This document shows, one piece after another, positions 1 to 7,280 of a stretch of 7,280 nucleotides of DNA. The DNA is taken from positions 1 to 7,280 of IMG/VR virus record IMGVR_UViG_2541047771_000008, one strand, 5' to 3'. Below the pieces are notes generated by a model. That model saw only the letters and a list, made by a program, of their open reading frames with translations. It searched no databases and was not told the DNA's origin. The position numbers and the translations under genes were made by a program. The DNA comes from a virus. Its lineage: Duplodnaviria; Heunggongvirae; Uroviricota; Caudoviricetes. Each line of letters begins with the position of its first letter. Position 1 is the stretch's first letter.

Positions 1-1239
1 ATGAGCAGGGCAATTCATAGACTTAGCGACACTCTTTTACGAAAATTAAGCGGATCACCAACCACAAAAAACACCTTTTTTAATGATGGTGGCAACCTTA
101 GCGTAAGGCATTCAACCAATGGCCTGTTAACCTGGTATTTCACTTACAGGGCCGGAACTGGCAGGCAGGTATCACCGGAACGCCTGAGACTGGGCAACTA
201 TCCCGATCTGAGCCTGAAAGCAGCCAGAGAAAAAGCGGCACAGTGTCGCGCCTGGCTGGCGGAGGGGAAAAATCCACGCCATGAGCTTAATCACACAGTG
301 CAGGAAGCGTTAGCACCTGTAACGGTTAAGGACGCGATCACTTACTGGCTTGAGTCATACGCGAAGGAAAAGCGCACTGACCACGAATCACTGAAAAGCC
401 GGATCAATAAGCACATAATCAGCCAGATTGGTGCTATGCCGCTGGATAAATGCGAGTTACGCCACTGGCTGGCCTGTTTTGACCAGCTTGCTAAGCGTAA
501 TCCGGTATCAGCCGGCTTTTTGTTGCAGGTATGCAAGCAGGCGCTTAAGTACTGCCGTAAACGTCGCTACGCCGTCAGTAACGTTCTTGATGATATGGTC
601 GTAGGTGATGTGGGAAAAAAAGCAGAAATAAGCGAGCGAGTGCTAACAAACAAGGAGCTTGGCGAGCTACTCCGCGCACTGGATGAAAAAATTTTCCCGC
701 CGTACTACAGCGCCTTAATTCGCCTTCTGATTGTCTTTGGATGCCGTACCACTGAGCTAAGACGCTCCGAGGTTCAGGAATGGGATTTTAAAGAAATGCT
801 CTGGACTGTGCCGAAAGAACACAGCAAAACGAAGGTAGCAATATTCAGGCCAATACCGGAAGCGATCTTGCCGTTTGTCATGAAGCTGGTGGAGAAGAAC
901 AGGCACACGGGCTTATTGCTTGGAGAACTGAAAGGGCAATCATCCGTAGCAGAGTACGGAAGAACGGCACACAGACGCATTAATCAAGCCCCCTGGTCGT
1001 TGCATGACATCCGGCACACATTTACAACCATGCTGAACGATTTAGGCGTGGATCCGCATATTGTCGAGCAGCTTACCGCCCACCAGATGCCGGGGATGCA
1101 ACGAGTCTATAACCACTCCCGTTATCTTGATGCAAAACGTGATGCTCTTAATCTATGGGTAGACCGTCTCGAGCTTCTCCAGAACAATGATGAAAAAATC
1201 GTTGTTATGACCCCGCGAATTTACCCCCAAAATTCTTGA
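1..1239 (+). CDS. int: site-specific tyrosine integrase, P4-type
   Basis: Complete 412-aa ORF starting at window position 1 with stop TGA at 1237-1239. The C-terminal half carries tyrosine-recombinase signatures (LHDIRHTFTT box, RVYNHSRYLD tyrosine region, upstream conserved Arg region). Length and N-terminal domain fit P4-like integrases. The RBS and att site would lie left of the window and cannot be seen. Confidence 0.92.
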   Translation: MSRAIHRLSDTLLRKLSGSPTTKNTFFNDGGNLSVRHSTNGLLTWYFTYRAGTGRQVSPERLRLGNYPDLSLKAAREKAAQCRAWLAEGKNPRHELNHTVQEALAPVTVKDAITYWLESYAKEKRTDHESLKSRINKHIISQIGAMPLDKCELRHWLACFDQLAKRNPVSAGFLLQVCKQALKYCRKRRYAVSNVLDDMVVGDVGKKAEISERVLTNKELGELLRALDEKIFPPYYSALIRLLIVFGCRTTELRRSEVQEWDFKEMLWTVPKEHSKTKVAIFRPIPEAILPFVMKLVEKNRHTGLLLGELKGQSSVAEYGRTAHRRINQAPWSLHDIRHTFTTMLNDLGVDPHIVEQLTAHQMPGMQRVYNHSRYLDAKRDALNLWVDRLELLQNNDEKIVVMTPRIYPQNS

Positions 1240-1658: not shown

Positions 1659-1868
1659 ATGCGTGAAATAAATGAAGATCGCGTAATCCGTGAGGATGAA
1701 TGTCGTAAGTTAACTGGAGTGTGTCGCACTACACGCTATGAACTGGAGAAAAAAGGGAATTTCCCGTCACGCCGTAATCTGGGCGGTCGTTCTGTAGGTT
1801 GGCTGCTGTCCGAGGTTATGGAATGGGTTAAAAGCCGGGATCGCATTAATTCAGGCAAGGCAGCGTAA
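1659..1868 (+). CDS. alpA: AlpA/Vis-family helix-turn-helix regulator (prophage transcriptional activator / excision regulator)
   Basis: 69-aa ORF; the segment CRKLTGVCRTTRYELEKKGNFPSRRNLGGRSVGWLLSEVMEWV matches the AlpA family pattern (HTH followed by FP-x-P...G-x-RSV-x-W...EV-x-W). A weak AGG lies 8 nt upstream of ATG 1659. The position just after int is typical for P4-like elements and PICIs. Confidence 0.88.
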   Translation: MREINEDRVIREDECRKLTGVCRTTRYELEKKGNFPSRRNLGGRSVGWLLSEVMEWVKSRDRINSGKAA

Positions 1869-1895
1869 AGGGGAGCATATGACATATAAAACAAA

Positions 1896-1915
1896 GGCGA
1901 CCGGGGGCGGTCGCC
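1896..1915 (-). terminator. intrinsic terminator hairpin for the minus-strand mini-operon (possibly also a weak stop for alpA)
   Basis: Perfect 8-bp GC stem GGCGACCG / CGGTCGCC with loop GGGG. On the minus strand the hairpin is followed by a U-rich tract (complement of 1879-1895 gives UUUGUUUUAUAUGUCAU). On the plus strand no U-tract follows. It lies about 70 nt past the stop of the minus-strand gene ending at 1983. Confidence 0.5.
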
Positions 1916-1982
1916 AATGGATACACACTAAACTTGAACGCATCACCAACAATGCCACATTTGCGGCTGGTGGGCAATGTGA

Positions 1983-2156
1983 TCAGTCAGATTTGGTTCG
2001 TTCCAAGGTTTGCAACGAGAGCTTTTTCCTGTGCTCTTTAAGGAATTTCTCAAGAGCAAAAGCACATGGCGCGAATCTTTCTGATTCATGCTCTATCTTT
2101 CTGCGCCGTCTTTTCCGTGCCGGTGATAATGTTTTGGTCAATTCTTTATCGGTCAT
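1983..2156 (-). CDS. small highly basic protein (57 aa), unknown function
   Basis: Minus-strand ORF; the start is chosen at the second ATG (2156) because AGGA sits 7 nt upstream, whereas the ATG at 2171 has no SD. Translation MTDKELTKTLSPARKRRRRKIEHESERFAPCAFALEKFLKEHRKKLSLQTLERTKSD is K/R/E-rich and predicted helical. It sits second in an operon after the RHH gene. No family recognised by eye. Confidence 0.5.
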   Translation of the reverse strand: MTDKELTKTLSPARKRRRRKIEHESERFAPCAFALEKFLKEHRKKLSLQTLERTKSD

Positions 2157-2213
2157 TGTGTTGTCCTGCATAGCAATGCGCCGTAGTTACTCACACCACG
2201 GCGCTGGTGATGG

Positions 2214-2393
2214 TTACTCCTGCTCTTTGGCCTTGCGGCGCTGGCGGCGTTTGATCTCGCCTTTAACGGCAGTAACTATAAATTGCGCCTTGCTTTCACC
2301 TTCATCTAAATTTTTTTCTAAGTCTGCAACAACATCATGCGGGAATCTGGCATTTAACTGTTGCGACTTATTATTTGTTGAACCTGTTGCCAT
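2214..2393 (-). CDS. ribbon-helix-helix (Arc/Mnt/CopG-like) DNA-binding protein, 59 aa
   Basis: Minus-strand ORF starting at ATG 2393 with SD AGAGAGGA 7 nt upstream; the longer 117-aa version from the ORF track has an implausible N-terminus. The segment QQLNARFPHDVVADLEKNLDEGESKAQFIVTAVKGEI follows the RHH layout and resembles P22 Arc (QFNLRWPREVLDLVRKVAEENGRSVNSEIYQRV, recalled from memory): beta-strand, helix A, G-x-S turn, helix B. It is followed by a basic tail. Confidence 0.72.
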   Translation of the reverse strand: MATGSTNNKSQQLNARFPHDVVADLEKNLDEGESKAQFIVTAVKGEIKRRQRRKAKEQE

Positions 2394-2414
2394 TACTGAA
2401 TCCTCTCTAAGTTG

Positions 2415-2504
2415 GTGCGATTCAGTATACACAAAAAAAATTTCAGAGAAAGGCTTGAAGTGCGATTCACTTGCTGATAGGTTAAAAACGAATGGTGCGA
2501 TGCA
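2415..2504. promoter_or_regulatory. divergent promoter/operator region with three direct repeats GTGCGAT(T/G)CA
   Basis: Repeats at 2415-2424, 2460-2469 and 2495-2504; the third is embedded in the palindrome GGTGCGATGCACC (2494-2506). On the minus strand a near-consensus -10 TATACT (complement of 2424-2429) abuts repeat 1, just upstream of the RHH SD. On the plus strand a candidate TTGAAG (2455-2460), 17-bp spacer, TAGGTT (2478-2483) overlaps repeat 2. The promoter hexamers are weak and this is inferred. Confidence 0.4.
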
Positions 2505-2748
2505 CCAAGCAACAACGCCCCGCAGTGGTGGCACACATGCAGGGCGTCTAACCACCAACGATAGCAACAGTATCGAGGCAGCTATGAGAAATTATACCAG
2601 ACACCCGCAAGGGCGGGACTCGCACAACCTGAATAAAGCGGGTGTAAAAAACCAGTTGATCGCCACTGCAAGCCAGGGCTATGATTTATCCGCACCAGCA
2701 AAATCTGGTGCCGGGATTGGCGTCCTGGAAATGTCAAAGGCGATATAT

Positions 2749-2768
2749 GACGCGCCAGCGTCTTTTTT
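2749..2768 (+). terminator. weak intrinsic terminator-like hairpin inside the long leader
   Basis: GACGC-GCCA-GCGTC (5-bp GC stem, 4-nt loop) followed immediately by TTTTTT (2763-2768). No plus-strand ORF with a start codon ends here. It could mark the 3' end of a small RNA or an attenuation point before the Icd-like operon. The stem is short, so confidence is low. Confidence 0.3.
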
Positions 2769-2934
2769 ATCGTCCGCATTCGCTCACATCAAAGTTATGG
2801 TGGGCTGGGCGGGGGCTTCTTCGGAAGCGCCGGTTCCCTTTGACGCCGGTTACGCCAACCCCGTTCAGTCCACCGCCAGCGAAATTGGCGTTTCCTGCGG
2901 TGGAAATTCTTCACTGTCAAAGGAGGCTGCCAAC

Positions 2935-3123
2935 ATGGCTACTATCCCTACCCTTGTACATTCTCAAACCGCCTTTCTCTGGCGCTTTATCATCTTTGGC
3001 GCGTCAGACCATCAAATCATCCACGTCACCGCCTGGACGGAACGTGAAGCGCGTAACCGCTGCCCGTCCGGTTGTGTTGCTGTATTCGCCGCCCGTATTC
3101 GCCAGGGGGTGTGCCATGCCTGA
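2935..3123 (+). CDS. small Icd-like protein (62 aa; prophage cell-division-inhibitor-like), first gene of the replication operon
   Basis: ATG 2935 is preceded by a perfect SD AGGAGG (2921-2926) at 8-nt spacing. Translation MATIPTLVHSQTAFLWRFIIFGASDHQIIHVTAWTEREARNRCPSGCVAVFAARIRQGVCHA resembles the short Icd-like proteins I recall being annotated beside P4-type integrases (memory only, not searched). It is the in-frame C-terminal end of the 414-aa shadow ORF; an alternative upstream start at 2584 (GAGG SD) cannot be excluded. Confidence 0.68.
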   Translation: MATIPTLVHSQTAFLWRFIIFGASDHQIIHVTAWTEREARNRCPSGCVAVFAARIRQGVCHA

Positions 3124-3436
3124 TATGTCAAATTACCAGTACCTGATTAATCCGCATTTTAACTGTGAGCATGATATTGCTAAAAAGGTTTATTCCGCTG
3201 CGGATGGGGCTACTGACAATATATCAATGGGTATTGCGTCAATTGGTAGCCTGATGTGGCATGCGTCAGAAAATGAGGACTATGACGAAAAGGCCATGCG
3301 CATTGATATGGGTAATATCGGTTTGTTACTGGCAATGCTTGGGCAGTTTGATATTTCGTTACGGTGCACCATTGAAAATGCCACAGATGCATTAAATGCC
3401 ATAAAGAAAGCGAATACTGATTCAAATCGGGGATAA
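3116..3436 (+). CDS. hypothetical protein (106 aa)
   Basis: ATG 3116 overlaps the upstream stop (ATGCCTGA, 3116-3123), indicating translational coupling. SD AGGGGG (3104-3109) precedes it. The N-terminal 145 codons of the annotated 251-aa ORF are Pro/Arg-rich junk, so the start is trimmed to 3116. The retained part has balanced composition. No family recognised. Confidence 0.68.
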   Translation: MPDMSNYQYLINPHFNCEHDIAKKVYSAADGATDNISMGIASIGSLMWHASENEDYDEKAMRIDMGNIGLLLAMLGQFDISLRCTIENATDALNAIKKANTDSNRG

Positions 3437-3442
3437 ATAATC

Positions 3443-3742
3443 ATGAGAACATATATATCTGGCTTGACTGCCAGCGGTTATGCACACCCCAAAATTATCC
3501 CCGGCGCTATTTATCTGGATAAGAACGGTAACAGAGTAACGGTAAAAGAACTGATGTTTGACCGTGTGTATTTTATTCGTGATGGCTATTCATTTCATAG
3601 TTCGCTGAACGTGGAGATCTTTATTTGCAGATTCCGGCGGGAAATCCCGCCTTCCAGAAATAACCATGTGTCATGTATGGATGTTGATAAAAAACTACAG
3701 GAGCTGAAAAACATGATTGCCGCGTGGAGAGAGCAGAAATGA
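3443..3742 (+). CDS. hypothetical protein (99 aa), coupled to the helicase/primase gene
   Basis: ATG 3443 lies 6 nt after the upstream stop, with GGGGA upstream. Its stop TGA (3740-3742) overlaps the next start (ATGA at 3739-3742). It occupies the position held by small early genes such as epsilon in P4; that is positional analogy only, with no sequence recognition. Confidence 0.68.
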   Translation: MRTYISGLTASGYAHPKIIPGAIYLDKNGNRVTVKELMFDRVYFIRDGYSFHSSLNVEIFICRFRREIPPSRNNHVSCMDVDKKLQELKNMIAAWREQK

Positions 3743-5556
3743 AAAAAGCGCCAAATTTAAAACACCAGCCGCGTGACAAAATGACGGAAGTCATCATTTT
3801 TGCGGGTAGTAATGCGTGGGCACATGCGAAGCAGTGGCAGGAACAGGACGGGCGACTGGCTGGCGATAACGTGCCTCCTGTCTGGCTTGGAGAGCAACAA
3901 CTTGCCGAACTGGACAACCTGCAAATCGTACCGGACGGACGCTATCGCGTGCGTCTCTATCAGGCGGGGTTATTGCGTCCGGGGCTTGTTAATACCATCG
4001 GGCAGAAACTGGCAGCGGCAGGTGTCAGGGATGCTGATTATTACCCTGAAGGAATGCACAGCCAGAAACGGGAGAACTGGCGCGAATATCTGGAACGTGA
4101 ACGGGCAGAGCTGGCGGAAAAGAAAAAGGTAGTTGAACTGCCTGTAAAGAAAAAAGAGCGGGTAAAAGACGATAACGCTTCATCACTGGCGCTTAACCAG
4201 ATGGGAGCAAGTCAACGCGGCGAAGTTCTCCTGGCACATTATGGCGGTGAACTGGCGATTCATGCTGACTCTGACACTGTTCACCATTACAACGGCGTTG
4301 TATGGGAGCCAGTACAGGATAAAGAATTACAGCGAGCTATGGCACAGATTTTCATTGATGCGGAGATCAGCTATTCGCAGAACGCCATTAAATCGGCGGT
4401 CGATACCATGAAGTTAAGTTTGCCTGTTATGGGGAATACAGCCCGTAACCTGATTGGATTCAGTAACGGGGTATTTGATACCAGAACAGGTAATTTTCGG
4501 GAGCATAACAAAAACGACTGGTTGTTAATTGCCAGTGAATTACCTTTCAGCCCACCAGCAGAGGGGGAAACGCTGGCAACACATGCGCCGAATTTCTGGA
4601 AGTGGTTACGCCGTTCGGTGGCTGAGAATGACTGCAAGGCGGATCGCGTACTGGCTGCATTATTCATGGTGCTGGCGAACAGGTACGACTGGCAGTTATT
4701 CATTGAGGTAACAGGTCCAGGAGGAAGTGGTAAAAGCGTGATGGCGGAGATTTGCACCATGCTGGCGGGTAAGGCCAACACAGTATCGGCAAGCATGAAG
4801 GCGCTGGAAGATGCAAGGGAACGCGCGTTAGTGGTTGGCTTTTCGCTGATTATCATGCCGGATATGACCCGCTACGCTGGTGATGGGGCAGGAATTAAGG
4901 CCATTACAGGCGGTGACAAGGTGGCAATTGACCCGAAACACAAAGCCCCCTACTCAACGCGTATTCCGGCAGTAGTGCTGGCGGTTAACAATAACGCCAT
5001 GTCATTCAGTGACCGCAGCGGGGGGATCTCACGTCGTCGGGTGATATTCAATTTTTCGGAAGTTGTACCGGAGGACGAACGCGATCCGATGCTGGCGGAA
5101 AAAATAGAAGGTGAGCTGGCGGTAGTGATTCGCCATCTGCTTACACGGTTTGCTGACCAGGACGAAGCCAGACGCCTGTTATATGAGCAGCAGAAATCTG
5201 AAGAAGCACTGGCGATAAAGCGAGAGGGGGATTCGCTGGTGGACTTCTGCGGCTATCTCATGGCGTCGGTAATGTGTGATGGCCTGTTAGTGGGTAATGC
5301 TGAAATTGTGCCATTCAGCCCACGCAGGTATCTCTATCATGCCTATCTGGCTTATATGAGGGCACATGGGTTTGGTAAACCTGTAACACTGACGCGCTTC
5401 GGTAAAGATATGCCGGGGGCAATGGCGGAATATGGCAGGGAGTATATGAAACGGAAAACGAAGCACGGTTTGCGTTCAAACGTGACACTGACGGAGGAAT
5501 CAGAAGACTGGATGCCATCATGTGTATCGGTCACTAATGACGACAGCAAAAATTAA
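3739..5556 (+). CDS. replication protein: P4 alpha-like primase C-terminal (D5_N-like) plus SF3 helicase
   Basis: 605 aa from ATG 3739 (SD GGAGAGAG upstream; the ORF track's GTG at 3724 is a less likely start). Walker A is VTGPGGSGKS, a Walker B-like stretch is FSLIIMPDM, and motif C is VLAVNNNAMSFSDRSGG. The block upstream of the P-loop (NLIGFSNGVFDTRTG) is typical of phage/plasmid primase C-terminal regions. The matching iteron array lies immediately downstream. Confidence 0.9.
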   Translation: MKKAPNLKHQPRDKMTEVIIFAGSNAWAHAKQWQEQDGRLAGDNVPPVWLGEQQLAELDNLQIVPDGRYRVRLYQAGLLRPGLVNTIGQKLAAAGVRDADYYPEGMHSQKRENWREYLERERAELAEKKKVVELPVKKKERVKDDNASSLALNQMGASQRGEVLLAHYGGELAIHADSDTVHHYNGVVWEPVQDKELQRAMAQIFIDAEISYSQNAIKSAVDTMKLSLPVMGNTARNLIGFSNGVFDTRTGNFREHNKNDWLLIASELPFSPPAEGETLATHAPNFWKWLRRSVAENDCKADRVLAALFMVLANRYDWQLFIEVTGPGGSGKSVMAEICTMLAGKANTVSASMKALEDARERALVVGFSLIIMPDMTRYAGDGAGIKAITGGDKVAIDPKHKAPYSTRIPAVVLAVNNNAMSFSDRSGGISRRRVIFNFSEVVPEDERDPMLAEKIEGELAVVIRHLLTRFADQDEARRLLYEQQKSEEALAIKREGDSLVDFCGYLMASVMCDGLLVGNAEIVPFSPRRYLYHAYLAYMRAHGFGKPVTLTRFGKDMPGAMAEYGREYMKRKTKHGLRSNVTLTEESEDWMPSCVSVTNDDSKN

Positions 5557-5567
5557 ACTTATGGAAT

Positions 5568-5800
5568 AACTGTTCACCACTGTTCACCCTGTCATAAATA
5601 TCTTTTATATCAGTATATTATAGGGTGAACAGTTATTTATGAACTGTTCACCAAACTATTCACTGTTCACCTTTTTGATTGTTTATTGAGCTTCAAGGGT
5701 GAACAGTGGTGAACAGTTGGTGAATAGTTTTTGTGAAACTGTTCACCCCTTAACATTATGAATTAAAAGATAAAATATCAAAAGGTGAACAGGTGAAGGG
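5568..5800. repeat. replication origin (P4 ori/crr-type): iteron array of TGTTCACC octamers with AT-rich spacers
   Basis: Perfect TGTTCACC at 5571-5578, 5581-5588, 5645-5652, 5664-5671 and 5740-5747. Reverse-complement GGTGAACA at 5624-5631, 5698-5705, 5708-5715 and 5784-5791. Degenerate copies at 5719-5726 and 5792-5799. AT-rich stretches (for example 5591-5623) lie between copies. The octamer matches the type I iteron bound by P4 alpha protein as I recall it. Confidence 0.82.
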
Positions 5801-5843
5801 TTAAAACGCAAAAATTTTAATTTACTGCTGTGAGATAAAGCCT

Positions 5844-6089
5844 ATGACAGCGAAGCACACAAAAAAATCACAATCGCACGCCCTTGATTTGACGGAACAC
5901 TGGTTAAGGGTGTCGATAAAAATCATCGACCGCAACGCCGGGGAAGGATATGCGAAAGCACATCCAGAACTGATTAGCGCATTCATGACAACGGCAGCTG
6001 CAAACTTTGCCACGCTGACAGAACGGGAGATTGCCGAAGCGGAACAGGTGACAACCATCAACGTTAAAACCGGAGAGCAGACAGCATGA
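5844..6089 (+). CDS. hypothetical small protein (81 aa)
   Basis: The ORF has a weak SD (GAGAT). Its stop overlaps the SSB start (ATGA at 6086-6089), which supports it being real and co-translated with ssb. Minus-strand ORFs over the same region are Cys/Trp-rich and look like antisense artefacts. No family recognised. Confidence 0.5.
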   Translation: MTAKHTKKSQSHALDLTEHWLRVSIKIIDRNAGEGYAKAHPELISAFMTTAAANFATLTEREIAEAEQVTTINVKTGEQTA

Positions 6090-6508
6090 CAGCACAGATA
6101 GCGGCTTACGGGCGGCTGGTGGCTGACCCGCAGTTAAAGACCACCAGCAAGGGTACACAAATGACGATGGCTAGTATGGCAGTCCCCCTTCCGTGCAGCC
6201 AGGCAGATGACGGAACGGCGACGATGTGGTTATCCGTCCTGGCGTTTGGCAGACAGGCCGACGCACTGGCAAAACACCACAAAGGCGAACTGGTGAGCGT
6301 GGCGGGTAACATGCAGGTAAGCCAGTGGACAGGCCAGAACGGCGAAACGCGGCAGGGCTGGCAGGTTATCGCAGACAGCGTGATCAGTGCGCGAACAGCG
6401 CGACCGGGCGGCAAAAAAGGCCAGCAGGGGCAGGCCACTGACGCACTGAACAGGGCAAAACAACAGTCGGGGAATGATGATCCGTACGGCGATAATATAC
6501 CGTTTTAA
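6086..6508 (+). CDS. ssb: single-stranded DNA-binding protein (SSB family, OB fold with acidic C-terminal tail)
   Basis: 140 aa with SD GGAGAG 8 nt upstream. The OB-fold core aligns by eye to E. coli SSB (GRLVADPQL...WLSVLAFGRQADALAKHHKGELVSVAGNMQVSQWTGQNGETRQGWQVIADSV versus VGNLGQDPEV...[51 protein letters not shown]). A Gly/Gln-rich linker follows, and the C-terminus ...DDPYGDNIPF matches the SSB tip motif (E. coli ends DDDIPF). Confidence 0.85.
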   Translation: MTAQIAAYGRLVADPQLKTTSKGTQMTMASMAVPLPCSQADDGTATMWLSVLAFGRQADALAKHHKGELVSVAGNMQVSQWTGQNGETRQGWQVIADSVISARTARPGGKKGQQGQATDALNRAKQQSGNDDPYGDNIPF

Positions 6509-6525
6509 ATTCTGCAAACAAAAAG

Positions 6526-6554
6526 ATGCCGGAAAAAAATAGATTTTCCGGCAT
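6526..6554. terminator. perfect 11-bp hairpin, probable transcription terminator between ssb and the capsid gene
   Basis: ATGCCGGAAAA-AAATAGA-TTTTCCGGCAT at 6526-6554. A clean U-tract follows only in the minus orientation (complement of 6511-6525 gives CUUUUUGUUUG). On the plus strand the hairpin is preceded by an A-tract with no U-tract after it. It may be bidirectional or protect ssb from leftward read-through. Confidence 0.45.
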
Positions 6555-6725
6555 GCTACATAAATCCCGACCAAAGGAAGTAAATACATTAACACGAATT
6601 ATCAGCACTGAAGTTGTCACGGCATATTTTATACAACATTGCACTTGGTTGCATGTATTCGCATAGCAGACATCGGTAATAGAATATATTCACAATTATT
6701 TGTAATGAATGTAAAGAGGATGAGT

Positions 6726-7280
6726 ATGGTTGACTTATATTCGCCTACACAGCTTGTGCAGGTGGCTAATGCTGAAGATGTGCAAAAAAAATTAAATGCG
6801 TTGTTTACCAGTTTGTTTTTCACTCGCTCGGTAATGTTTGAATCGAGAGACATTATTCTTGATACGATCGACGATCCAAATATCCCGATCGCGGCGTTTT
6901 GCTCTCCTATGGTGGGCAGTAAAGTTTCACGAGATGAGGGATACGAATCAAAAACAATTCGCCCTGGCTATATGAAACCGAAAAGCAGCATTGATCCAAA
7001 TAAGTTAGCTGTGCGCCCTGCTGGTGTATCACCTGAGCAATACAATGCTTTTGGAGCGCGTAATATTAAAGTTAAACAGGCGATTGTAAATCAGGCTAAA
7101 GCTATTCGTGCACGTATTGAATGGCTTGCCGTTCAGGCAATCACAACGGGGAAAAATATCATTGAGGGCGATGGTATTGAACGTTATGAGCTGGACTGGA
7201 ATATTAAACCACAAAATATCATCACTCAGTCTGGCGGTGCTGAGTGGTCAGGTAAGGATAAAGAAGCTTTTGATCCAAAT
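6726..7280 (+). CDS. major capsid protein, lambda gpE family (5' portion; gene continues beyond the window)
   Basis: Open frame from ATG 6726 to the window end (185 codons, no stop), with SD AAGAGGA 5 nt upstream; an in-frame ATG at 6720 would give MSMVD..., mirroring the lambda E N-terminus MSMY. Recalled lambda gpE blocks match: IRPGYMKPK versus FTPGYVKPK, and NIITQSGGAEWSGKDKEAFDP versus NITQSGGTEWSKRDKSTYDP. Not in the ORF track because it has no stop in the window. Confidence 0.82.
   Translation, partial: MVDLYSPTQLVQVANAEDVQKKLNALFTSLFFTRSVMFESRDIILDTIDDPNIPIAAFCSPMVGSKVSRDEGYESKTIRPGYMKPKSSIDPNKLAVRPAGVSPEQYNAFGARNIKVKQAIVNQAKAIRARIEWLAVQAITTGKNIIEGDGIERYELDWNIKPQNIITQSGGAEWSGKDKEAFDPN

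Follow-up and report, generated by a model that had tools for sequence, protein, structure and literature searches.

The window, meaning the whole 7,280-nt stretch analysed here, ends inside a reading frame that is open on the plus strand from an ATG at 6726 to the last nucleotide (7280), which gives 185 codons. A Shine-Dalgarno (SD) motif, AAGAGG, read from the sequence at 6714-6719 on the same strand, precedes the ATG with a spacing of 6 nt, and 217 bp separate the ATG from the stop codon of ssb, which ends at 6508. The 185-codon fragment matched the Pfam family PF03864 (Phage_cap_E) with 65 bits (E=7.9e-18; profile positions 4-167 of 329), where the gathering cut-off is 22.9 bits. It also matched the PHROG major-head families phrog_29 (E=3.6e-39) and phrog_2353. 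A 99.9 %-identical copy has the same start, and RefSeq annotates its product as a 346-aa major capsid protein (WP_000228102.1). This full-length protein covered positions 4-327 of the 329 of Phage_cap_E (141 bits) and was collinear with lambda gpE (PDB 7VI9; E=6e-76) over residues 5-345. Its best relative in the PDB was 3BQW (E=1e-121), a protein of 351 aa entered as "putative capsid protein of prophage"; over the aligned residues it reads the same as the translation of c1499, the capsid gene of the satellite EcCICFT073. The match over the whole profile and the HK97-type-fold relatives of solved structure place the protein in the lambda gpE family, with 55 % amino acid identity to c1499 and 42 % to a lambdoid prophage E protein. 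An earlier note on this DNA had proposed a gpE-family capsid gene with a strong SD 217 bp after ssb, and no terminase, portal, protease or decoration gene in between. The family assignment, the SD and the gap were all confirmed, and the gene and profile matches likewise placed none of these genes in the gap. The note's worry that the homology might vanish on proper alignment proved groundless. The capsid homology and the gene layout are real and not due to chance.

The upstream part of the window is filled with integration, regulatory and replication genes. First, a tyrosine integrase gene (1-1239, plus strand; Pfam Phage_integrase, Arm-DNA-bind_3 and Phage_int_M; phrog_1) forms the integration zone; measured on the copy L001, the integrase is 77 % identical to that of EcCICFT073. 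It is followed by the gene of an AlpA regulator/excisionase (1659-1868, plus strand; Pfam Phage_AlpA, 59.5 bits), which is 57 % identical to the EcCICFT073 AlpA. On the minus strand, a small gene of the YlcI/YnfO family (2214-2393) was recognised by phrog_949 on residues 58-116 of a 117-aa ORF. In relatives, RefSeq gives a 59-aa YlcI/YnfO protein at this place, and the real gene is probably just the 3' ~60 codons of the ORF. The plus strand from 2692 to 2880 holds an isrK RNA (2692-2768) and a C4 antisense RNA (2793-2880), both found as gathering-level Rfam matches (75 and 82 bits). Together they make up an immunity RNA cassette like CI/seqA of P4, placed in the regulatory ("Bro") zone, which is variable. 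The isrK and C4 RNA families have been reported in the PICIs (phage-inducible chromosomal islands) of Gram-negative bacteria (GN-PICIs; PMC10111431).

Further along lies a DUF4222 gene (3443-3742, plus strand; Pfam DUF4222, 61.7 bits) 5' of the primase, and EcCICFT073 has such a gene in the equivalent position. The primase/helicase gene (pri-rep; 3739-5556, plus strand) encodes a D5/P4-alpha-like protein with the Pfam domains D5_N, DUF5906 and Pox_D5 and matched phrog_864 (E=1e-190). Its ORF opens with a GTG at 3724, the RefSeq start is the ATG at 3739, and the product is 48 % identical to EcCICFT073 Pri. Directly 3' of pri, a repeat search found the iterons of a replication origin (5568-5802), ~11 copies of ACTGTTCACC/GGTGAACAGT in both orientations, a position that matches the PICI ori organisation described in PMC6092414. 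A conserved hypothetical gene of the replication zone (5844-6089, plus strand; phrog_1231; 88 % identical to its EcCICFT073 counterpart) and ssb, for a single-stranded DNA-binding protein (6086-6508, plus strand; Pfam SSB, 59.3 bits; phrog_44; 71 % identical to the EcCICFT073 SSB), complete this part. Just 3' of ssb, at the boundary of the replication and late zones, a hairpin with an 11-bp stem (6526-6554) has a T-run on the minus strand only. The GC content drops from 0.58 to 0.38 at the ssb/capsid boundary, and the capsid gene is the first gene of the late zone. A promoter scan of the ssb-capsid gap gave a single weak site (TTCGCA-16-TAGAAT, 6658-6685), which did not rise above shuffled sequences. 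The earlier note had placed a module boundary in this gap. The change in GC agrees with this, and so does EcCICFT073, where two extra genes (perC and a small ORF) stand between ssb and the capsid gene; the studied island lacks them.

The complete island and its packaging end

E. coli CE0032f matches the last 1.7 kb of the window with 99.9 % identity, and 80 % or more of this part is present in at least 316 genomes of the species. The window is a mosaic relative of the CE0032f copy, being 99.0 % identical over 3082-7280 and 91 % over int/alpA and differing at 2248-3081. The best match to the whole window was strain TCM3e1, in which the island context is the same as in CE0032f. The parts 3' of the window were read from the copies L001 and L013, which are 99-99.9 % identical. 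The E. coli chromosomes concerned (identity over this part 99–99.9 %) have the island at the yljB 3' end, flanked by cspD and clpS. Comparison with the empty site in K-12 revealed a 22-bp att core duplicated at both borders and an island size of 10.34 kb, so that the far att site, which the earlier note had wished to see located, is defined. The note had also allowed for a prophage of normal size downstream. Instead, the island ends after 10.34 kb at clpS, and the satellite-type element that the note had suggested as one option is what this size and the absence of tail and lysis genes from the island gene lists describe.

The order of the island is int–alpA–(isrK/C4 RNAs, icd-like)–DUF4222–primase–ori iterons–hyp–ssb–capsid E–decoration D–AlpA-like HTH–cos–TerS–hyp. 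Reading on from the 346-aa capsid gene, both genomes show a decoration gene of the lambda D family (113 aa; Pfam HDPD) and then the second AlpA-like gene, which codes for an HTH protein of 127 aa. After a gap of 200 bp come a TerS gene of the Nu1 family (180 aa) and one small gene, beyond which lies the host clpS. Among the 14-15 genes of the island in the two E. coli genomes, no portal, protease/scaffold, TerL, connector or HNH gene was found by Pfam, PHROG or annotation. The expectation that the rest of a head module would lie beyond the window therefore fails: only E, D and Nu1 homologs are there, with no portal, protease or connector.

Between the HTH and TerS genes, the island holds a perfect copy of the lambda cosN 12-mer, GGGCGGCGACCT (L001 18970-18981). 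By our own arithmetic, chance would produce ~0.004 such exact 12-mers over the two strands of 33.7 kb. Alignment with the cos of EcCICFT073 and of a CFT073 lambdoid prophage showed that cosQ, cosN and the next ~30 bp are conserved. Thereafter cosB diverges and is island-specific; it differs between the studied island and EcCICFT073, and its sequence (GGTGGTGGTGGTGG…) is common to the TerS-carrying islands of Kosakonia and Superficieibacter. The TerS matched the Nu1-like Pfam profile with 81 bits and phrog_57 with E=1e-51, and its tblastn alignments covered residues 5-163 with N15 gp1 (47.5 %) and residues 6-176 with lambda Nu1 (37.6 %). A PDB sequence search with this protein returned only noise, and the assignment rests on Pfam, PHROGs and tblastn. 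By these alignments, the 180-aa protein is a full-length TerS and not an Rpp. Rpp proteins have 139-154 aa and no TerL-binding tail (PMC9026076). The packaging end of EcCICFT073 consists of c1501 and RppA (144 aa), whereas that of the studied island consists of the AlpA-like HTH protein and TerS, and blastp of the island TerS against RppA gave no similarity.

From the work on EcCICFT073 and the anatomy of the island, we infer that a lambdoid cos helper would induce it. The induced island would then excise, replicate from its own ori and form concatemers. Judging by homology, its TerS would bind the island cosB and recruit the helper TerL to cut at the shared cosN, and the DNA would be packaged in heads that use the helper portal, scaffold/protease and tails. 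The packaging mechanism is thus likely to be as in pac-type SaPIs, with satellite TerS, satellite cosB and helper TerL. EcCICFT073 achieves the same result through Rpp-TerS heterodimers, Rpp being a different protein at this position.

Relation to EcCICFT073 and other satellites

We compared the island with EcCICFT073, taken from the CFT073 chromosome (L004 36931-47655), in which the order is int-alpA-YlcI/YnfO-icd-like-DUF4222-primase-hyp-SSB-(PerC, hyp)-capsid-decoration-c1501-rppA-hyp. Island-versus-island blastp paired the genes one to one. The two islands are similar in size (10-11 kb) and syntenic gene by gene, with 35-91 % amino acid identity of the shared proteins. Besides the blastp values given above for int, alpA, pri, the first hypothetical protein, ssb and capsid, the identities were 61 % for YlcI, 91 % for the icd-like protein, 35 % for DUF4222, 54 % for the decoration protein and 71 % for the last hypothetical protein. 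Both islands have a lambda-type cosN and an ori between pri and hyp/ssb. They differ in the integration site, which is the yljB 3' end for the studied island and lies between roxA and phoQ for EcCICFT073. EcCICFT073, the prototype of the Gram-negative PICIs (Fillol-Salom et al. 2018 ISME J; 2019 Mol Cell), carries the capsid gene c1499 and the decoration gene c1500, and cos helpers of the lambda/phi80 type mobilise it (PMC6092414). It is the only such island for which a helper phage has been shown to bring about induction, packaging and transfer at high frequency (PMC6092414).

The SatelliteFinder model of a PICI has a core of integrase, AlpA-type regulator, primase-replicase, capsid homolog and small terminase (PMC10085698). 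Portal and connector genes are "forbidden" in it, and "Type A" PICIs with all five core genes were found in E. coli (PMC10085698). In the studied island, the integrase and AlpA-type regulator genes are co-oriented at the left end (1-1239 and 1659-1868), and the primase-replicase gene has its iteron ori directly 3'. A capsid-morphogenesis component is provided by the Phage_cap_E protein, and the packaging-specificity gene stands beside cos, with TerS 134 bp downstream of the exact lambda cosN. The island falls within the ~10-15 kb of PICIs, with defined att sites and without tail, lysis, portal or connector genes. Thus, every sequence-testable feature of a Gram-negative PICI ("PICI Type A" of SatelliteFinder) was present, and those that define cf-PICIs (capsid-forming PICIs) and P4 were not. 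The element is a classical PICI, and neither a cf-PICI, a P4-like satellite nor a prophage. Very probably, the reading frame at the window end encodes the capsid homolog with which the late zone, the zone of capsid morphogenesis and packaging, begins in classical Gram-negative PICIs like EcCICFT073.

The module order had struck the earlier note as unusual. It is in fact the standard Gram-negative PICI order of replication zone, capsid E, decoration D, cos and TerS/Rpp, found in EcCICFT073 and in the published PICI models. A major capsid gene occurs in 21 of 29 reference Gram-negative PICIs and is their commonest "late zone" gene (Tommasini et al., PMC10111431). The layout is ordinary because a capsid homolog is usual in PICIs of the EcCICFT073 type. 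The feature is already known and belongs to a known family, and the island type is common and annotated in E. coli.

The note's label "P4-type" is loose. The island shares with P4 the integrase, the AlpA-type regulator, the D5-type primase/helicase, the CI/seqA-like (C4/isrK) RNAs and packaging at a helper cos, and the types of int, alpA and primase are indeed common to P4. However, as far as the Pfam and PHROG assignments go, the island has no sid, psu, delta or epsilon, and it carries the capsid E and D homologs that P4 lacks, and its cos and TerS are lambda-type and not P2-type. General Pfam and PHROG profiles assigned no island gene to sid, psu or delta, and no unassigned ORF was of suitable size.

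The helper-embedded PICIs (HE-PICIs, e.g. Eco567.11capE; Tommasini, Mageeney and Williams 2023) have the same four-zone organisation and the same late zone, and in them, as in the studied island, a short motif is doubled inside both island ends. This motif is GGTGTAGTyAAT in the studied island and TGTATTGC in the embedded ones. Relatives in Cedecea and Kosakonia, with capsids 79-85 % identical, interrupt a lambdoid E gene near codon 90 and carry a capsid gene of their own, whose product is only 36-48 % identical to that of the helper E gene interrupted. The studied island, in contrast, is chromosomal, so that its interaction with a helper would be in trans, and its integrase groups with that of EcCICFT073 (77 %) and not with those of the embedded islands (44 %). 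Finally, the Ccm of SaPIbov5, a cos-packaged staphylococcal PICI, is likewise a satellite homolog of a helper HK97-fold capsid protein and is the only precedent with a known mechanism, namely co-assembly that redirects capsid size and shape. It differs in that it belongs to an unrelated sequence family and has no decoration partner; in addition, small capsids have not been seen with the EcCICFT073 type.

Divergence, selection and role of the capsid and decoration genes

A nucleotide search with 6500-7280 against 50,697 phage records gave no match. At the protein level, which the earlier note had proposed to check against phage capsids, the top phage match was lambda gpE; the homology stood, yet no phage capsid among the 50,697 records was more than 41.5 % identical. 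Both members of the pair were closer to satellites (capsid 55 %, decoration 54 %) than to phage E and D (42 % and 46 %). The capsid and decoration genes were intact in all seven islands compared, with an omega of 0.014-0.07 in the former and of 0.07-0.12 in the latter; the unsaturated pair L001/L013 had a dN of 0.004 and a dS of 0.077. The two genes are therefore under strong purifying selection (ω about 0.01–0.1). A scan of genome contigs across genera with two peptide patterns, which yielded four loci and speaks to presence in four genera and not to frequency, found capsid orthologs 79-86 % identical in Superficieibacter, Kluyvera, Cedecea and Kosakonia, and in every case the decoration and HTH genes came next. 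In these four other genera, blastp with lambdoid portal, protease, TerL, W, FI and FII proteins found matches only in flanking helper prophages and never inside the satellites. The capsid/decoration pair is an old, selected satellite lineage, and neither a relic nor a fresh capture.

The divergence from phage was strongest in the N-terminal third of the capsid protein, with 35 % identity as compared with 42 % overall, and the first ~20-30 residues of the decoration protein did not align with phage D. In lambda capsid structures, the N-terminal part of the capsid protein and the N-terminus of the decoration protein contact each other. That the divergence is focused on the contacting parts points to E and D being a cognate pair, and with it to patches of lattice built from satellite E. 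Satellite E may co-assemble into procapsids nucleated by the helper portal and scaffold, or replace helper E in them. The cognate satellite D would stabilise the lattice patches formed by satellite E, and the pair may adjust the capsid in size or in its compatibility with natural helpers. In the helper-embedded relatives, satellite E may also cover for the interrupted helper E gene.

Deletion of c1499 or c1500 in EcCICFT073 left transfer and lambda interference unchanged (PMC6092414). Its packaged DNA was all phage-sized, and small capsids were not seen with those helpers (PMC6092414). Given these results, our confidence in a structural co-assembly role of the pair is moderate to low. With the laboratory helpers used so far, the pair is dispensable in EcCICFT073. 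A literature search on the function of c1499/c1500 or on PDB 3BQW found no relevant follow-up, although subscription papers were possibly missed.

A bolder version of the structural model, which we regard as unlikely, is that with a natural helper the shells consist wholly or largely of satellite E and D and are built on the helper portal, scaffold/protease and terminase motor, possibly with a smaller T number and one or two 10.3-kb genomes. In that case, the laboratory helpers with which the outcome was negative (lambda, phi80 and CFT073 prophage 4) would not have been the cognate ones.

We also considered whether the role of the pair is non-structural, or conditional on natural helpers, for instance as a backup for helper E, as a dominant-negative poison of head assembly or as a decoy for capsid-sensing defence. 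The backup idea was raised in PMC10111431. Such a role would accord with the close late-zone relatives that lie inside the E gene of lambdoid prophages (L007 and L008) and with the lack of a transfer phenotype in the c1499 and c1500 deletions. However, the studied island is chromosomal (yljB site), and yet both of its genes are under strong purifying selection. Moreover, the deletion of c1499 or c1500 did not relieve lambda interference, and it would be difficult to see why a cognate decoration protein is kept if satellite E formed no lattice. We therefore hold a non-structural or conditional role to be doubtful.

Other origins of the capsid gene

The sharp GC drop at the ssb/capsid boundary could also mark a recent mosaic junction, at which a P4/PICI replicon lately captured part of a helper lambdoid head module, so that the capsid gene is an unadapted passenger. 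The late zone is dynamic and does capture helper late genes (PMC10111431), and in L005-L008 the same capsid-dec-HTH-terS late zone is joined to different integrases and replication modules. A recent capture is nevertheless improbable. No phage capsid exceeds the identity given above, and there is no nucleotide match to phages. The capsids of the embedded satellites are far more similar to other satellite capsids across genera (79-86 %) than to the helper E protein whose gene they interrupt (36-48 %). An omega of 0.01-0.07 is at odds with an unadapted passenger, and the E-D-x-cos-terS/rpp order is conserved with EcCICFT073 at 55 % identity. Taken together, the low identity to phages, the cross-genus identity among satellites, the low omega and the conserved order show that the acquisition of the capsid gene is ancient and that the gene has been maintained.

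The earlier note had also suggested a capsid-forming satellite, which makes complete capsids of its own and steals only tails from its helper. The cf-PICIs (Alqurainy et al. 2022/2023) resemble the studied island as int/alpA/pri satellites with an HK97-fold capsid gene and terS, and the full-length HK97-fold capsid protein, the decoration protein, TerS and cos site of the island, with its capsid and decoration genes under strong purifying selection, would suit such an element. But the att-bounded 10.34-kb island has no portal, protease/scaffold, adaptor/connector, TerL or HNH gene, and the orthologous islands in the four other genera equally lack the genes that define cf-PICIs, the same genes that are "forbidden" in the PICI model (PMC10085698). 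An HK97-fold shell without portal and TerL cannot package DNA, and the island can neither build nor fill a capsid of its own. The suggestion was thus not borne out over the whole island, and we consider it very improbable.

Lambdoid prophages of ~40-60 kb have the order Nu1-A-W-B-C-D-E-..., as compared with E-D-x-cos-Nu1 in the 10.34 kb of the island. Two CFT073 lambdoid prophages formed the contrast set and were also the blast references for portal, protease, TerL and tail genes; of the genes of a functional lambdoid prophage, only E, D and Nu1 homologs were found in the island. That the island is the degraded remnant of such a prophage, most of whose head, tail and lysis genes were deleted, is scarcely credible despite the lambda-family E, D, Nu1 and cos, given the precise att borders with an empty site in K-12, an integrase/AlpA/primase/ori set of its own that is typical of PICIs, E before D and cos-terS last, unlike same-species prophages, and the same compact architecture with intact genes in at least 316 E. 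coli genomes and four other genera.

Gram-negative PICIs normally have a capsid gene of the lambda E type straight after their replication genes, and the layout matters little as a finding. The capsid layout of EcCICFT073 was described in 2018 and is built into satellite-detection models, and annotated examples of this island type exist in hundreds of E. coli genomes. The window by itself brings no new evidence on the role of PICI capsid homologs. If shells of satellite E and D on helper parts were true, PICIs of the EcCICFT073 type would stand between classical PICIs and cf-PICIs, both in evolution and in mechanism. The question raised is why a capsid homolog is retained by most Gram-negative PICIs, and in the studied island together with an apparently cognate decoration protein, under strong purifying selection, when deletion had no phenotype in the only model studied. 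The TerS-type island, its cross-genus relatives and its helper-embedded cousins are reasonable material for this question.

Variable zone of the window

By comparing the window with the island copy in the chromosome of E. coli strain CE0032f (L001), we found 99% identity from position 3082 onward and 91% identity across int/alpA; no alignment was obtained at 2248-3081 except for one 96-bp piece. Among the E. coli complete genomes in the collection searched, none showed >98.5% identity with 94% coverage over the whole window. As judged from these alignments, the window is a mosaic of variants already known. This mosaic make-up, with the unalignable 2248-3081, is consistent with the reported fast turnover of the 'Bro zone', the variable regulatory zone of PICIs.

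Rfam matches at gathering level were obtained for isrK RNA (window 2692-2768, + strand) and C4 antisense RNA (2793-2880, + strand), and the pair (2692-2880) lies upstream of the icd-like region. Together, isrK and C4 make up a P1/P4-type RNA immunity cassette inside the variable regulatory zone of the satellite. The long ORFs 1879-3123 and 2681-3436 overlap these RNAs and are probably spurious. C4/isrK matches are already known from Gram-negative PICIs (PMC10111431).

Doubled motifs at the island ends

The 12-mer GGTGTAGTyAAT is doubled (GGTGTAGTTAAT) just inside both ends of the island, at L001 10685-10708 (24-47 nt before the first position of the window) and, at the far end, L001 20795-20818. 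In this chromosomal island, each doubled 12-mer separates an att core from the genes, and the set resembles arm-type sites for the integrase. A doubled attP motif has been described as unique to helper-embedded PICIs (PMC10111431). The chromosomal PICI here carries an analogous doubled motif of different sequence. In the embedded island of L008, TGTATTGC is doubled at both ends. This satellite (L008 2659-14522) and that of L007 (2948-14248), from Cedecea/Kosakonia relatives, match the published helper-embedded class (HE-PICI), and the capsid protein encoded by the satellite itself shares only 36-48% identity with the helper gene that is interrupted.

Late zone and cosB

A second AlpA-family HTH gene (L001 18530-18913; 127 aa; phrog_2790, E=2e-48) is flanked by the decoration gene on one side and cos on the other, with 64-72% conservation in four other genera. 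EcCICFT073 carries at this position c1501, which is unrelated to the 127-aa HTH protein. The latter may serve as a regulator of the late zone or as an accessory factor in packaging.

Two lambdoid prophages of CFT073 (L004 7729-31821 and L002 34933-49001) lie within 50 kb of EcCICFT073, and both have the canonical Nu1-A-W-B-C-D-E order. The TerS of the potB-side prophage (L004) matches the island TerS at 45% identity over the C-terminal 110 residues of the latter.

In the island cosB (L001 19013-19088), a block of GGT repeats, GGGTGGTGGTGGTGGTTTTGTTGTTTG, is followed about 30 bp later, after an A-rich stretch, by an ACC-rich block that runs in the opposite sense, AACACCAACACACCAACC. This layout resembles R3-I1-R2. 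At the corresponding place in EcCICFT073 (L004 about 46600-46640), the island cosB repeat is found inverted (CACCACCACCAC). Recognition of related repeats may be common to islands of the TerS and Rpp types.
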